A stretch of 64,000 nt of DNA from Escherichia coli (lineage in GTDB: Bacteria; Pseudomonadota; Gammaproteobacteria; Enterobacterales; Enterobacteriaceae). The number at the start of each line of letters is the position of its first letter. Positions within the stretch are counted from its first letter, which is position 1. Where the stretch lies: the NCBI RefSeq assembly GCF_041886205.1, contig NZ_CP169031.1, one strand, 5' to 3'. Shown here piece after piece: positions 10,366 through 60,043 of this stretch. The notes beneath the pieces are model-generated. The model did not search any database. It was given only the letters and a program-made list of their open reading frames with translations, and was not told the origin of the DNA. The translations under genes and the position numbers were made by a program.

Positions 10366-10404
10366 TTATAAAAAAGGCTGCAACCTCTGTTGCAGCCTTT
10401 TTTT
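10366..10404. terminator. Bidirectional rho-independent terminator
   Basis: A-run, then ggctgcaac-ctct-gttgcagcc, then T-run, between the convergent DUF3892-like and ParA-like genes. Confidence 0.6.
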
Positions 10405-14852: not shown

Positions 14853-14899
14853 AGTTACGGCCTCGTAAGTTGATAAACAACCTGCGACCCGCTGCTAAA

Positions 14900-14990
14900 C
14901 AGGTGGCAGGACGTGACGGGGTTAGCAGACTGGCACTTACGAAACCAGCAGGCCGAAGCCTCCCCATCACGCCCCACCATAATTCGGGCG
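14900..14990 (-). ncRNA. c4: c4-like antisense repressor RNA (approximate bounds)
   Basis: Between a C1 operator-like site (15165) and icd. The transcript would contain cugcuaaccc (14912-14921), complementary to two gguuuagcag target copies, one at 14888-14897 near the icd RBS and one at 15060-15069. Confidence 0.45.
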
Positions 14991-15164
14991 TAACGTGGTT
15001 TACGGACACAAAAATACCGCAATATCGGAAATCTGCGGTTGTCCGCGTAAGTATTCAGGCTGCTAAACCCGGTCGCAGAATTTGCTACGACGGCGGAACT
15101 ATAAGCCTGAACGATTAAAAGGTCAATATGATGCGAAAAGATAGCATTCGCGACTTAAAAATAC

Positions 15165-55797: not shown

Positions 55798-55879
55798 GTT
55801 TTGTTGGCCCGGTTTGCACCGGGCGTTTCACAAACAATCAACTGGTTTGTAGTTCCTGCGGCGAGATGAATTATTAATA

Positions 55880-56488
55880 TTATCGTGGTGCCGATGATGC
55901 GATAGCCTGTATGATGTTATCAATATCGTTATCGTTCAGCATGAATATAGGTACACCATTAGAGTTTGCATTTTTTTCAGTGCTCATCAAACAAAGCCCC
56001 TCATACATGCCGCGAGTTTTTTTGAAATTGGCGACTGATGGAGTGGTGTAATTTCCTTTAAAGTGCATTCCGGCTGATTCATAAAAAGGAACCAAATCAG
56101 ACTGGCAAATCAAAGCGACCTCATTTGGAAATGCAAGTATTTCTGCCAGTATATTACTTCCAAGTCCATTACCACGATATTGCTCATATACATATATTTT
56201 ATGACAGTACAACGGAAAATTTCCCGATGGATGTCCGAAGATTAAGGCGTATCCGAACAAGTTTTCTTCATTAGTAAAGCCCATAATGCGCAAATGACCG
56301 GCTCGGTAACACTCTTCAAAAACGTTAATTATGTAGCTTCTCGCTGCTTTCAGCTCCTCTTCTGTCGGGAACATCATCAACCCCATAAGCGATGGAGTAT
56401 AGGCCAGATCCTGAAGAATCCCATTAGCTTCATTTTCGAAAATTAGCGGTAAGTGCGGTACAATTTCATTTGCCGAGGTATTAGACAT
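55880..56488 (-). CDS. GNAT-family N-acetyltransferase
   Basis: 202 aa; motif A (YVYEQYRGNGLGSNILAEIL) and motif B-like (VPFYESAGMHFKG). AT-rich gene with its own AT-rich upstream region. Confidence 0.65.
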   Translation of the reverse strand: MSNTSANEIVPHLPLIFENEANGILQDLAYTPSLMGLMMFPTEEELKAARSYIINVFEECYRAGHLRIMGFTNEENLFGYALIFGHPSGNFPLYCHKIYVYEQYRGNGLGSNILAEILAFPNEVALICQSDLVPFYESAGMHFKGNYTTPSVANFKKTRGMYEGLCLMSTEKNANSNGVPIFMLNDNDIDNIIQAIASSAPR

Positions 56489-56496
56489 AGTATGGT

Positions 56497-56520
56497 GAGT
56501 CCTTTGTTTTCAAAGGACTC
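56497..56520 (-). promoter_or_regulatory. Perfect 10-bp-stem hairpin in the GNAT leader, overlapping the likely Shine-Dalgarno
   Basis: gagtcctttg-tttt-caaaggactc; on the mRNA it ends 8 nt before the ATG and contains the only SD-like aagga. Confidence 0.45.
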
Positions 56521-56686
56521 ATGTTATCAGTGATAATCGTTTGTTGTAATAGTGTTGATAAAATAATTTTCTATTATGTAAGCAAGCTCATTTTTATGAC
56601 GGGTAATGCAAAAAAAATAGAATCAAAAAACTAAAAAATAATAATTCATGGGGTTTTACACCATCAAAAGTCCCCACTATAAATTA

Positions 56687-57328
56687 TTAGAAATAATTAT
56701 GCTTGCCTGTTAATACCCCTTTCGGCACTTTTTTTTGTTCCAGTGTCTGGGTACCCAGAATTATGTTAATAAGTGGACTTAGTAACGATGGTTCCTGGCG
56801 GGCTTCAACTTCTCCAGCCATTGCCCTGATGTAGTCGGCGCTGGCAACGTTGTTGTATTCCGTCGCAAAGCAACATAGTAATGTCAGAACATGCTCTGTC
56901 GTTATTTCGCTCCAGTTGATGTTGAAAAATTCATCGCCTTTTTTATCGTGTTCGGAATCGAAGATGCTTTGGTGGAGGATGTATTTGCCGGATTCCTTGC
57001 GCGGTAACTTGATCGCTTTCTGGCGTTCCAGCTCCTTGTAAATCTGCATTGCTTCAATCAGTACCGGCCTGCCGTTCATGAAGGGATCGCGCAACCTTAC
57101 ACGCTGGCCAACTCGACCAGTAATAAAGCTGTTTTCCTCTTCCACCAGCACGATAAAACCCTTTTCCTCTTTTTCTCGCAATTCGCGCAGCAGCTGGAGT
57201 TCCATGTCGCGGCGGCGTTCAGGGTAGCTGGTCCGCTCAGCCATTATCAGCTCGTTGTTGATCCATGCAGCAGTCATTGACGCCGGTTTGCCGACGCTCA
57301 TCGAAACAACGCATATTTTCTTATCCAT
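56687..57328 (-). CDS. Hypothetical protein
   Basis: Track ORF of 222 aa (to 57355); likely start MDKKICVV at 57328. Preceded on the minus strand by a late-promoter-like element (57469-57477). Confidence 0.45.
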   Translation of the reverse strand: MDKKICVVSMSVGKPASMTAAWINNELIMAERTSYPERRRDMELQLLRELREKEEKGFIVLVEEENSFITGRVGQRVRLRDPFMNGRPVLIEAMQIYKELERQKAIKLPRKESGKYILHQSIFDSEHDKKGDEFFNINWSEITTEHVLTLLCCFATEYNNVASADYIRAMAGEVEARQEPSLLSPLINIILGTQTLEQKKVPKGVLTGKHNYF

Positions 57329-57516
57329 AGCGCCCCTACAAAAAAGAAAAGCCACCAGCGGCGGCTTAGCAATACAACTGAAGGTAGCGCCCGGTACTCA
57401 GACTGTGCCGTCCATGGAATATTTGAAAAGGGATCCATCCGTACCGGGCGTGTGATGATTCTGACTCAAGTCACTTGTCAGTTGTCAATCATTTAAGATT
57501 AAAAATAATATATTTA

Positions 57517-58077
57517 TTAGTGCATAATGTTTGCCATTTCATAGGCGTCAGCCAGCAACTCCATCTCTGACTTGTTCAACAAGGTGAATTCTTTCTTGCC
57601 TCCTACCACGCCATCGGCATGAACAGGGACCAGCCAGGGGTATTTTTCTCTTACTTCAGCCGGTGCTGCATGCTGGTGGTGCCATCTGCAAAGGGGCAAT
57701 TGCTTTTTGTGACAACCCGGCGCGGTACGACCGGAGATATGGTGCAGAGACACCTCTTCAGATATTACTCCATGCATGTAGCAGGCAATGCAGGGGAGAG
57801 TGCCAAGAGCATTGGCGATAGTCTGTTCCTCCTCCGTCGGTGTTCGCCCCTTCAAGCCACGAGATTTTATTTTTACCGCACTTTTCCGCGTTTTGCTGGC
57901 TGGTGGGCGCTCTTTCTGTTTAGCGATACGGCGGTCGATAGAATCCCGCATTTTCTGATATTGCGATTCTCGCCAGGCGGGGTCAGCCAACTTTTCCCGT
58001 TGCCGAGCGATCGCTCGTTCTCTGGCTGCCTTCTGCCACTCGCGGCGCTGTTCAAGTTTTTGTTCGATTGTTTTCAT
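57517..58077 (-). CDS. ref: Ref recombination enhancement function (HNH endonuclease)
   Basis: 186 aa from MKTIEQK; C-terminal HNH-like Cys/His cluster (CIACYMHG...HHISG...CHKKQ...CRWHH); C1 operator-like site upstream. Confidence 0.75.
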   Translation of the reverse strand: MKTIEQKLEQRREWQKAARERAIARQREKLADPAWRESQYQKMRDSIDRRIAKQKERPPASKTRKSAVKIKSRGLKGRTPTEEEQTIANALGTLPCIACYMHGVISEEVSLHHISGRTAPGCHKKQLPLCRWHHQHAAPAEVREKYPWLVPVHADGVVGGKKEFTLLNKSEMELLADAYEMANIMH

Positions 58078-58177
58078 ATGGCAAAAAAAAGGCGGCCTAA
58101 TGGCCGCCAATGATGTCAAGGAGTGAAGTAATGGCAACGTCTTCGTAGTTGACAAAAACTGCGGCCAAATTATAACA

Positions 58178-58192
58178 ATCAATTAGAGCAAT
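58178..58192. promoter_or_regulatory. C1 operator-like site (atcaattagagcaat)
   Basis: Operator core match about 100 bp upstream of ref. Confidence 0.5.
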
Positions 58193-58225
58193 GGTAGATA
58201 TTTTGTTTCTCGCGAATCACATTTT

Positions 58226-58328
58226 TTCACTTCAGTACCTGTGTGCTATACTCCTTCTTGATTGATTGGATGCGGAATACAAACCCGCTCTTTTGTGCAG
58301 CCTGGCTCCTTGCCAGGCTTTTTTTTAT
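58226..58328 (+). ncRNA. Candidate small RNA transcription unit
   Basis: Plus-strand extended -10 (tgctatact at 58244-58252) with a ttcact -35-like hexamer, then a plus-oriented intrinsic terminator (agcctggc-tcct-tgccaggct plus T9) at 58299-58328. No plausible plus-strand CDS. Confidence 0.3.
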
Positions 58329-58636
58329 TTCATCATGGAAGCTGTTAACGCTTTGGACCTTGCTGAACTGATTGAAAGGGCATTGTTTACCTTACCCAGG
58401 AGTTTGCCAAATTCCCCCATCACTCTAGTAAGCCCGCGCCGCGCTTCCTCCTCCGTTGCATTCATCACAAAATGTTCAGCACTCCGCATGCTTTTAACGG
58501 GGAACGCAACAGATATCGAGTCGATATCAGGCATCCTATCGCTCAACTTTACGGTGACAATGACAGATGGCGACAGAATATTAGTGCTTACAGACAGCAC
58601 TACATATTTTCCGTCGATGTTGAAATCCTTTCTCAT
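58325..58636 (-). CDS. cra: Cra-like small protein between cre and ref
   Basis: Minus-strand ORF (track 58325..58672) between cre and ref; a C1 operator-like site at 58656-58669 overlaps the track start, so an internal start (MRKDF, 58636) is preferred. Confidence 0.35.
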   Translation of the reverse strand: MRKDFNIDGKYVVLSVSTNILSPSVIVTVKLSDRMPDIDSISVAFPVKSMRSAEHFVMNATEEEARRGLTRVMGEFGKLLGKVNNALSISSARSKALTASMMK

Positions 58637-58686
58637 ATGCCACCATAAATACCAAAGAATTAGAGCAATCATTTACGCGTTAATGG

Positions 58687-59718
58687 CTAATTGCCATCTT
58701 CCAGCAGGCGCACCATTGCCCCTGTTTCACTATCCAGGTTACGGATATAGTTCATGACAATATTTACATTGGTCCAGCCACCAGCTTGCATGATCTCCGG
58801 TATTGAAACTCCAGCGCGGGCCATATCTCGCGCTGCTCCGACACGGGCACTGTGTCCAGACCAGGCCAGGTATCTCTGACCAGAGTCATCCTTAGCGCCG
58901 TAAATCAATCGATGAGTTGCTTCAAAAATCCCTTCCAGGGCGCGAGTTGATAGCTGGCTGGTGGCAGATGGCGCGGCAACACCATTTTTTCTGACCCGGC
59001 AAAACAGGTAGTTATTCGGATCATCAGCTACACCAGAGACAGAAATCCATCGCTCGACCAGTTTAGTTACCCCCAGGCTAAGTGCCTTCTCTACACCTGC
59101 GGTGCTAACCAGCGTTTTCGTTCTGCCAATATGGATTAACATTCTCCCACCGTCAGTACGTGAGATATCTTTAACCCTGATCCTGGCAATTTCTGCTATA
59201 CGTAGCAGGGTATTATAAGCAATCCCAAGAAATGCCAGATTACGTATATCCTGGCAGCGATCGCTATTTTCCATGAGTGAACGAACCTGGTCGAAATCAG
59301 TGCGTTCGAACGCCAATGCCTGTTTTGCACGTTCACCGGCATCAACGTTTTCTTTTCGAATCCGCCGCATGACCAGTGAAACAGCATTGCTGTCACTTGG
59401 TCGTGGCAGCCCGGACCGACGATGAAGCATGTTTAGCTGGCCCAAATGTTGCTGGATAGTTTTTACTGCCAGACCGCGCGCCTGAAGATATAGAAGATAA
59501 TCGCGAACATCTTCAGGTTCTGCGGGAAACCATTTCCGGTTATTCAACTTGCACCATGCCGCCCACGACCGGCAAACGGACAGAAGCATTTTCCAGGTAT
59601 GCTCAGAAAACGCCTGGCGATCCCTGAACATGTCCATCAGGTTCTTGCGAACCTCATCACTCGTTGCATCGACCGGTAATGCAGGCAAATTTTGGTGTAC
59701 GGTCAGTAAATTGGACAT
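58687..59718 (-). CDS. cre: Cre tyrosine recombinase
   Basis: 343 aa starting MSNLLTVHQNLPALPVD, recognised as Cre; loxP lies about 420 bp upstream. Confidence 0.95.
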   Translation of the reverse strand: MSNLLTVHQNLPALPVDATSDEVRKNLMDMFRDRQAFSEHTWKMLLSVCRSWAAWCKLNNRKWFPAEPEDVRDYLLYLQARGLAVKTIQQHLGQLNMLHRRSGLPRPSDSNAVSLVMRRIRKENVDAGERAKQALAFERTDFDQVRSLMENSDRCQDIRNLAFLGIAYNTLLRIAEIARIRVKDISRTDGGRMLIHIGRTKTLVSTAGVEKALSLGVTKLVERWISVSGVADDPNNYLFCRVRKNGVAAPSATSQLSTRALEGIFEATHRLIYGAKDDSGQRYLAWSGHSARVGAARDMARAGVSIPEIMQAGGWTNVNIVMNYIRNLDSETGAMVRLLEDGN

Positions 59719-59725
59719 TTAACAC

Positions 59726-59947
59726 TCAGATAATGGTTTTAAGTAAAGTGTACAGGATCGGCTCTGCCTTTACCTGTTTATGGTTCTCGTCATAGAAACG
59801 CCAGCGACCGCGCGTGCGTTCTATTTTCTCTTCACCGCGCGATAATGACAGTTGGCAACTATCACGATCAAACCCTTTTGCCCGCCAGTAACCACGGTTT
59901 TTCTCAAGCTCAAGATGAGTGGACACTTTAGCAGCTGAATATCCCAT
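59726..59947 (-). CDS. Small ORF in the cre leader (uncertain)
   Basis: 73-aa ORF between the TGATCA cluster and cre; no clear RBS. Confidence 0.25.
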   Translation of the reverse strand: MGYSAAKVSTHLELEKNRGYWRAKGFDRDSCQLSLSRGEEKIERTRGRWRFYDENHKQVKAEPILYTLLKTII

Positions 59948-60043
59948 TTTTCACCTCTGATTGATTGGTGGTGCTAAGTGCGCTACGCGAAATCTGGAGC
60001 ACTAACACTGCCAACTTTTCACAGATTTTACGTAGCGCAACCT

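Follow-up and report, generated by a model that had tools for sequence, protein, structure and literature searches.

INTRODUCTION

The 77-nucleotide (nt) OOP RNA of phage lambda is an antisense RNA transcribed toward cII, a gene that establishes lysogeny. Phage P1 and its relative P7 have a regulatory RNA of another kind, the C4 antisense RNA (RF01695, with its a/b target sites). P1 is a heavily used and well-annotated phage, the source of Cre/lox and a standard tool of generalized transduction, and P1-like phage-plasmids often carry resistance genes. Here we analyse a 64,000-nt stretch of an Escherichia coli assembly (contig NZ_CP169031.1 of GCF_041886205.1; hereafter the window), which is a P1-like phage-plasmid in the orientation opposite to that of the P1 reference, and describe a candidate small RNA (sRNA) gene on its plus strand, between the minus-strand genes ref and c8. 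Judging from the sequence and its relatives, the locus is probably an independent regulatory RNA gene of P1-like phage-plasmids, ~67 nt long and acting by base pairing.

The candidate shares with OOP the design of a short phage RNA with its own promoter and intrinsic terminator, both of which are predicted here, and it is likewise convergent with, and complementary to the mRNA 3' end of, a (putative) lysogeny-establishment gene. Unlike OOP, which overlaps ~55 nt of cII coding sequence, it overlaps only the stop codon of c8, and the two RNAs have no sequence relationship. OOP is also not known for trans targets, whereas the conserved unpaired 5' end of the candidate suggests additional ones. 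C4 belongs to the same phage and is likewise a small RNA, one that uses short complementary blocks to block a ribosome-binding site away from its own gene. RNase P, however, cuts C4 out of the transcript of an operon, and C4 lacks a promoter-terminator unit of its own; the two are unrelated in sequence, structure and locus, and the Rfam scan detected no C4 at the candidate sRNA.

Two further groups of bacterial RNAs are relevant. With the Hfq-dependent sRNAs that use a 5' seed (RybB/OmrA type, and the prophage-borne DicF, IpeX, AgvB/AsxR and StxS) the candidate has in common a length of ~70 nt, a conserved 5' end predicted to be a single-stranded seed, a U-rich stretch, a Rho-independent terminator with a U tail of at least 6, and a predicted site at or next to a Shine-Dalgarno sequence; unlike theirs, its predicted targets are phage genes and not host genes, and it shows no sequence similarity to any Rfam family. 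As in the type I toxin-antitoxin pairs with a trans-encoded sRNA (tisB/istR-1, shoB/ohsC, zorO/orzO), ~13 nt are complementary to the start region of a distant short hydrophobic open reading frame (ORF). Unlike in those pairs, the ORF heads a C1-controlled operon instead of standing alone, and the sRNA gene lies >80 kb away from it and also matches cra.

RESULTS

A predicted promoter and a terminator frame the candidate sRNA

Sigma-70 promoters of the extended -10 class carry TGn directly before a hexamer near TATAAT. This is what is found at 58244-58252, where the original prediction had placed such an element: TGcTATACT agrees with TATAAT at 5/6 positions and is invariant in 87 related loci. 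The TTCACT 15 nt upstream that had been paired with it does exist (58226-58231), but TTTTCA at 58224-58229, with a 17-nt spacer, makes the better -35. Transcription would begin near 58259-58261, a start we infer because a variable discriminator meets an invariant block there. The end of the C1 operator Oref is 32 bp from the candidate -35, and a scan with the operator pattern found no C1 operator overlapping the candidate promoter, which does not obviously appear to be under C1 control. Since no operator overlaps it, the sRNA would probably be made in lysogens too.

At the other end, a terminator working on the plus strand only would release the RNA within a U-tract at ~58326. In its stem AGCCTGGC (58299-58306) pairs with GCCAGGCT (58312-58319), 6 of the 8 bp being G-C, and eight T at 58319-58326 (counting the T that closes the stem) are followed by A and then TTT. 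The hairpin and its plus orientation agree with the earlier description of a textbook terminator; its details do not, as the loop has five nucleotides (TCCTT) rather than four and the run eight T rather than nine. On the opposite strand GCACAAAAGAG comes after the hairpin instead of a U-tract, hence the terminator acts in the plus direction only. A strict scan, which asked for a perfect stem of 7 bp or more and for 6 T or more among the 8 bases after it, returned 19 positions (~9 distinct terminators) in the window versus 0.21 per shuffle, a ~90-fold enrichment, so such structures are real features of this DNA. The other strict terminators, where checked, lie at gene ends (for example at 10395, between convergent ORFs), and one is the known ref attenuator. 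The terminator at 58299-58326 has no plus-strand gene to serve: nearby plus-strand ORFs of at least 100 amino acids (aa) are antisense artefacts within ref and c8, and comparison of synteny with P1 revealed no plus-strand gene within 2 kb upstream in either the window or P1.

The RNA so delimited would consist of an unpaired 5' end, a small hairpin, a U-rich linker, the terminator hairpin and a U8 tail, in this order (Table 1). Its predicted fold has two hairpins (-23.2 kcal/mol, z = -3.0). The complementary strand folds equally well and fold energy does not tell the strands apart; it is the promoter, the U-tract and the pattern of G-U pairs in relatives that point out the strand. The linker UCUUUUGUGC, the hairpin and U8 (5-9 U in relatives) follow each other in the layout of an Hfq-binding module. 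The promoter, the terminator, their orientation and the conservation pattern described below thus agree with the ~70-nt plus-strand unit originally proposed, divergent from ref and convergent with the minus-strand gene upstream of ref, all of them from sequence and comparison, while the plus-strand ORFs are broken by differences in T-run length. That a discrete plus-strand sRNA is made appears quite likely.

Table 1. Positions of the candidate sRNA, its parts, its candidate trans sites and the neighbouring genes (window coordinates unless stated otherwise)
Feature	Position	Strand	Remark
Extended -10 promoter element TGCTATACT (TGcTATACT)	58244-58252	+	5/6 matches to TATAAT
-35-like hexamer TTTTCA	58224-58229	+	17-nt spacer to -10
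Variable discriminator, -10 to predicted start	58254-58259	+	5/6 positions vary among relatives
Predicted sRNA, ~66-68 nt	58259-58326	+	Start inferred; 3' end within U-tract
Predicted sRNA in P1 coordinates	~1895-1828	complement	
Unpaired 5' end UGAUUGAUUGGAU, candidate seed	58259-58271	+	
Hairpin 1	58272-58288	+	GCGG/CCGC stem, 9-nt loop
U-rich linker UCUUUUGUGC	58289-58298	+	Directly 5' of terminator hairpin; nearly invariant
Intrinsic terminator	58299-58326	+	8-bp stem, loop UCCUU, U8
Candidate target site CCAAUCAAUCA	59958-59968	-	-21 to -11 of cra AUG; abuts Shine-Dalgarno GAGGUG
Unannotated 28-aa hydrophobic ORF (MNTAFKIIMAAIYFWLFSITFGGIVAHG)	P1 AF234172 ~84392-84478 (263-349 of locus L096); OP279344 80652-80738		Outside window
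C1 operator Oref	58176-58192	-	From P1 annotation and operator pattern scan; overlaps divergent P2ref; context, not part of sRNA
mat	56687-57355	-	
ref	ATG at 58077	-	
c8	58325-58636	-	'Establishment of lysogeny, putative'; stop codon TAA 58325-58327 inside T run; convergent with candidate sRNA
cre	58687-59718	-	
cra	59726-59947	-	Upstream of cre

Conservation begins at the -10 and resumes in the transcript

The comparison covered ~90 related loci (eight plasmid or phage records, 80 IMG/VR contigs and three genome contigs). Almost every position of 58195-58241 varies among them, and the intergenic part 58198-58241 has 32 variable columns out of 44 (pi = 0.073); TTTTCA itself shows some variation. 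The next segment, 58242-58253 (TGTGCTATACTC), which contains the extended -10, has zero variants in the 87 loci. Between this block and the next invariant one the discriminator positions 58254, 58255, 58257, 58258 and 58259 vary. Over the body of the RNA (58260-58318) only 7 of 59 columns are variable (pi = 0.009), against 56 of 89 third codon positions of c8 (pi = 0.19). By Fisher tests the RNA body differs from the adjacent intergenic sequence (p = 2e-10), from c8 third positions (3e-10) and from third positions of ref (p = 0.02), and the 40 nt from the -10 to the hairpin are the most conserved non-coding bases of the region. An invariant -10, a free discriminator and a constrained transcript form the pattern that a promoter followed by an RNA gene would be predicted to leave.

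Variation inside the predicted RNA is unevenly spread. In the candidate seed 58260-58268 is invariant, and 58269 and 58270 each differ in one locus. Four of the nine positions in the loop of hairpin 1 vary (58276, 58278, 58283, 58284), as do positions 58307 and 58308 in the terminator loop; the stem of hairpin 1 has one G-U change and one C-A break, and that of the terminator is invariant apart from C>U at 58306, which keeps a G-U pair on the plus strand only. The T run is 5-9 long and is always followed by AUUU. Three of the four stem-side substitutions are C>U (58285, 58290, 58306), giving G-U on the plus strand and a C-A mismatch on the minus strand, while 58287 G>A goes the opposite way. 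The loops are less conserved than the 5' end and the linker rich in U, which suggests contacts in trans, and since a cis-antisense RNA needs no particular sequence, a purely cis role leaves the conserved 5' end unexplained.

The family is confined to P1-like elements as far as our searches reach. A search for distant relatives based on C8 found that homologues end at ~76% identity, all within P1-like elements; a model of the sRNA detected no paralogue within the window; and when the model was set against 80 IMG/VR contigs retrieved by the pattern TATACT-N5-9-GATTGATTGG, only known P1-like contigs were recovered, the others being chance matches.

The 5' end matches two ribosome-binding regions

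The invariant unpaired 5' end matches the ribosome-binding regions of two phage ORFs, which points to a possible trans-acting seed. To UGAUUGAUUGG at this end the cra mRNA is exactly complementary over 11 nt, from -21 to -11; no further match in the window is longer than 9 nt, and the cra site is invariant in 81 loci. When the seed was compared with the 92 annotated ribosome-binding regions of P1, cra came first with -16.3 kcal/mol, the next reaching -12.3, and 0.55% of shuffled seeds attained 11 nt in any P1 ribosome-binding region.

The second site is found outside the window, in the leader of the pmgT operon, which is under Op88/C1 control and is headed by a 28-aa ORF with a good Shine-Dalgarno sequence. 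Here (A/U)UCCAAUCAAUCA stands immediately 5' of CAGGAG, and 8 nt separate the latter from the AUG. In P1 the complement of the seed is 12 nt long, and P7, RCS47, Ro157c2 and MH422554 have one of 13 nt; the duplex is worth -18.5 kcal/mol, and the cofold gain of -16.1 beats all 400 random windows. Five P1-like phages share the same ORF, a single synonymous change being the only difference, and tblastn located it in 868 plasmids. The copies on non-P1 IncF plasmids that were examined are truncated by IS1 at codons 3-4 and are uninformative on the upstream motif. No Pfam or NCBIfam family matched the peptide.

It appears, then, that the 5' end could pair with (A)UCCAAUCAAUCA abutting the Shine-Dalgarno sequences of cra (11 bp) and of the 28-aa ORF (12-13 bp), which would occlude the ribosome-binding site in both. 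Whole-length duplex scans of the window were uninformative since long imperfect duplexes dominate them. We tentatively regard repression in trans through the 5' seed as the main function of the RNA, a proposal somewhat short of probable. A wider version of it, in which one seed controls a duplicated translation-initiation module, repressing cra (possibly cre as well) and a possibly toxic 28-aa peptide, with the sRNA gene itself as an inverted copy of the module, is possible but somewhat less likely.

The element is widespread, plasmid-borne and dispensable

A 100-nt element comprising the locus is present in 614 of 5,426 complete E. coli genomes (~11%), and none of the 614 carries an RNA feature annotation for it. 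Plasmids account for 612 of 621 locations, and 435 of 616 element records are at least 99% identical. A short contig labelled Acinetobacter idrijaensis (JQCU01000589.1, 411 bp; our L092) also carries c8 and the sRNA locus, at 89% identity; most likely it is contamination or a misassigned E. coli plasmid fragment.

Three kinds of natural variant were found. In L003-L005 (positions 1-598) a convergent plus-strand gene for a 'phage antirepressor KilAC domain' protein takes the place of ref, precisely from the start codon onward, but the attenuator hairpin of ref is still there, as are Oref, P1ref, P2ref and the sRNA locus; the element is thus kept whether its neighbour is ref or the antirepressor gene. 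A Salmonella plasmid from a pond isolate (L008, site 941/942) has a clean 399-bp deletion corresponding to window 58224-58622, which takes the promoter, the sRNA and c8 together. In L027 (3402-4366) a Tn3-family transposon with terminal repeat GGGGTCGTCTCAGAAAACGG is inserted at 58235/6, between -35 and -10; the loss of the -35 is tolerable for an extended -10 promoter. Taken together, these variants show that the element is dispensable and is linked to c8 rather than to ref.

Points that weigh against a base-pairing regulator

Dispensability, by deletion in L008 and by replacement of the -35 in L027, is one of several points that speak against the regulatory RNA we favour. It agrees with CRISPR interference data in which cra, cre, c8 and ref (the cra-darB region) are non-essential for lytic growth (PMC10695390). 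The -35 of the candidate promoter is weak. At cra the cofold gain of -11.5 to -12.2 kcal/mol reaches only about the 1st percentile of random windows, and the cra motif is intact in the one plasmid from which the sRNA has been lost, which says nothing if that loss happened recently.

The resemblance between the cra and small-ORF regions also exceeds the motif, their local alignment being equalled by 0 of 500 shuffles, and a third copy of the module, ATCCAATCAATCA-AGAAGGAG, appears when the sRNA gene is read on its minus strand. The three copies probably share ancestry, so that the two 'targets' are not independent support, and the common motif may reflect descent of a translation-initiation module and not targeting by an sRNA. 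The same ancestry is, on the other hand, a plausible origin story, as an inverted copy of a ribosome-binding region that gained a promoter and a terminator would be an antisense regulator.

The RNA structure is not independently proven by compensatory changes either, because the copies are too alike. The covariance analysis that the original prediction had proposed gave zero compensatory double changes with 99.4% of cells paired; the pair check over relatives counted two one-sided G-U changes and one break, among known copies that are all at least ~90% identical, a divergence too low for covariation in so shallow a family. Finally, low diversity continues for ~45 nt into c8 (58328-58370, its last 14 codons), where 3 of 14 third positions are variable as opposed to 56 of 89 elsewhere in the gene (p = 0.007), and a recombination block could account for part of the low diversity. 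Within c8, the block might stem from a boundary of recombination, from a longer form of the sRNA made by read-through, or from some other signal that overlaps there.

Possible cis pairing with c8 and read-through toward ref

The sRNA is fully complementary to any minus-strand RNA over 58259-58326, that is, to the 3' untranslated region (3'UTR) of c8. The description of the transcript as antisense to the end of a gene therefore stands for the c8 3'UTR and for read-through RNA; in coding sequence the overlap is at most the stop codon (58325-58327). Downstream of c8 the strict scan met its first minus-strand terminator only at the ref attenuator (58108-58083), therefore c8 and cre-c8 read-through RNAs carry a 3'UTR perfectly complementary to the sRNA. 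Such geometry would let the sRNA pair in cis with the c8 3'UTR and with cre-c8 read-through heading toward ref.

The strongest alternative builds on this geometry and holds that the element acts purely in cis, by antisense pairing or transcription interference of the lambda OOP type, with only the c8 3'UTR or cre-c8 read-through as partner. RNase III cleavage, decay or collision would then limit c8 or read-through into toxic ref, and the matches to cra and to the pmgT leader would be relics of duplication. Full complementarity, the missing minus-strand terminator, the joint loss of c8 and sRNA in L008 and the apparent relatedness by descent of the translation-initiation regions all fit this account, as does the report that Ref harms lysogens (PMC4713147). 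It leaves an invariant unpaired 5' end and linker beside variable loops unexplained, though; it has to work with a c8 coding overlap of a stop codon only, and it does not foresee that the seed puts cra first among the 92 ribosome-binding regions. As the whole explanation we consider it unlikely.

The ref leader, toward which such read-through would run, has sRNA-like features of its own. P2ref has a perfect extended -10 (TGTTATAAT, 58177-58169, minus strand) overlapped by Oref, and ~78 nt downstream of it a strong terminator, GGCGGCCATTAGGCCGCC followed by T8 (58108-58083), ends 5 nt before the ref ATG. Presumably it is this terminator that Windle, Laufer and Hays (1988; reference 18 of PMC4713147) called the 'attenuator'. 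The RNA of ~80 nt from P2ref to the terminator folds into a 5' hairpin, an unpaired CACUCCUUGA and the terminator (z = -3.85). A transcript from P1ref would start inside the attenuator hairpin and thus escape termination. No obvious Shine-Dalgarno sequence precedes ref. An antiterminator role for the candidate sRNA, through pairing with the ref leader or attenuator, was rejected, as this pairing is no better than that of 37% of shuffles.

Readings without a functional sRNA

A second alternative, which we judge improbable and behind the cis account, takes the element for a terminator or insulator only. It would stop stray plus-strand transcription from running antisense into c8 and cre, its source being for example the KilAC gene that replaces ref; the hairpin might perhaps stabilise the 3' end of c8 mRNA, the -10-like sequence would be fortuitous, and conservation would come from hitch-hiking or from a site acting at the DNA level. 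In L003-L005 the plus-strand gene indeed ends ~220 nt upstream and the terminator is the first plus-oriented one after it. With 14 extended -10-like strings the window shows no excess over shuffles (30), and the low-diversity block extends into c8. Yet the window and P1 have no plus-strand gene within 2 kb upstream, and the hairpin on the minus strand lacks a U-tract. Nor does an insulator account for conservation that begins exactly at TGnTATACT, drops over six discriminator bases and resumes, or for the 40 nt between -10 and hairpin being the top non-coding conservation of the region.

The element might also be a degenerate translation-initiation region of the minus strand (CCAATCAATCA-AGAAGGAG), that is, a copy of the cra/small-ORF module left behind by a vanished gene and with no plus-strand RNA function. 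The minus strand does align with the small-ORF region as ATCCAATCAATCA plus AAGGAG, which is Shine-Dalgarno-like, with 0.4% of shuffles scoring equally. But no start codon or ORF comes after this sequence, a relic is hardly expected to be the least variable stretch of its locus, and a plus-oriented promoter and terminator are not expected of a relic at all, which makes this explanation very improbable.

That the locus encodes a small hydrophobic plus-strand protein (58243-58371, 42 aa from a GTG start, or from the internal ATG at 58270) is hardly credible: the 42-aa ORF is hydrophobic and covers the conserved block, but it lacks a Shine-Dalgarno sequence, it could be completed only by passing a strong terminator, as had been pointed out from the start, and the T run of 5, 6, 7, 8 or 9 in relatives shifts the frame in most of them, which frameshifts all three plus-strand ORFs crossing it and removes the coding alternative.

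Genomic setting and annotation

In BLAST searches the segment 58080-58700 is 98.7% identical to phiW39 and SJ46 and 93.4% identical to P1. The genes of the region (mat, ref, c8, cre and cra) are, every one, on the minus strand. The original prediction had both flanking genes on that strand, which is confirmed with ref and c8 as the pair; it mistook the overlapped gene for a cra-like one, since that gene is c8 and cra itself lies upstream of cre.

The candidate sRNA is without annotation in P1 GenBank records and in RefSeq. Among its 535 features the P1 record AF234172 has none between the positions equivalent to 58198 and 58324, and nearby it annotates the ref promoters P1ref and P2ref and the operator Oref (window 58176-58192). 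Rfam 15 at permissive E-values returned only sub-threshold, terminator-like matches in 57400-59000, the best at the candidate sRNA being SorX with 22.6 bits against a gathering score of 46.6. When all 64,000 nt were scanned at gathering thresholds, C4 and c4-a1b1 (14.9-15.1 kb) were the only families found: the known C4 antisense RNA (RF01695) lies at 14899-14984 and its a1b1 target element (RF03163) at 15052-15104, on the minus strand, and their detection served as a positive control. A literature search by keywords and by sequence string found no report of the candidate sRNA, and the P1vir RNA-seq papers (PMC8201110; bioRxiv 10.64898/2025.12.28.696737) give data at gene level only.

Some further observations concern the neighbours. 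A C1-operator-like site (ATTGCTCTAATTCTTTG, 58653-58669, minus strand) lies 17-33 nt upstream of the c8 ATG; it is one of 7 matches to the operator pattern in the window, versus 0.03 expected. In P1 this site reads ATTGCTATAATTATTTG, doubling as a TATAAT box, and it is unannotated in the P1 record. Repression of c8 by C1 is therefore possible, and the sRNA gene would lie between two operators. In the window no stop codon interrupts the c8 frame upstream as far as an ATG at 58672, from which the protein would have 115 aa rather than 103 aa, and the extension (58637-58672) crosses the operator-like site; the 115-aa form is present in the protein database (P0001), whereas P1 and RefSeq annotate the 103-aa form. 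Neither C8 nor Cra matches a Pfam family, and both belong to PHROG families of unknown function. Elsewhere, at 55801-56819, ~1 kb of different DNA stands in place of P1 res and mod; it contains an ORF of 202 aa on the minus strand (55880-56488), which the P1 delta-res-mod reference does not have.

DISCUSSION

The locus between ref and c8 is best read as a short RNA gene with a promoter and a terminator of its own, and what probability remains belongs to a purely cis, OOP-like role or to a terminator or insulator only. It involves no new regulatory principle; what it would add is a previously unannotated base-pairing sRNA encoded by a phage. Provided that it is expressed, P1 would have a second regulatory RNA in addition to C4. 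Its gene adjoins cre, and its candidate targets are cra/cre, c8/ref and the leader of the pmgT operon. It would also exemplify a trans-acting sRNA born from an inverted copy of the ribosome-binding region of its target. Should a single seed indeed control the duplicated module, this would amount to an unrecognised post-transcriptional layer in the immunity and maintenance of P1, similar to a trans-encoded type I antitoxin.

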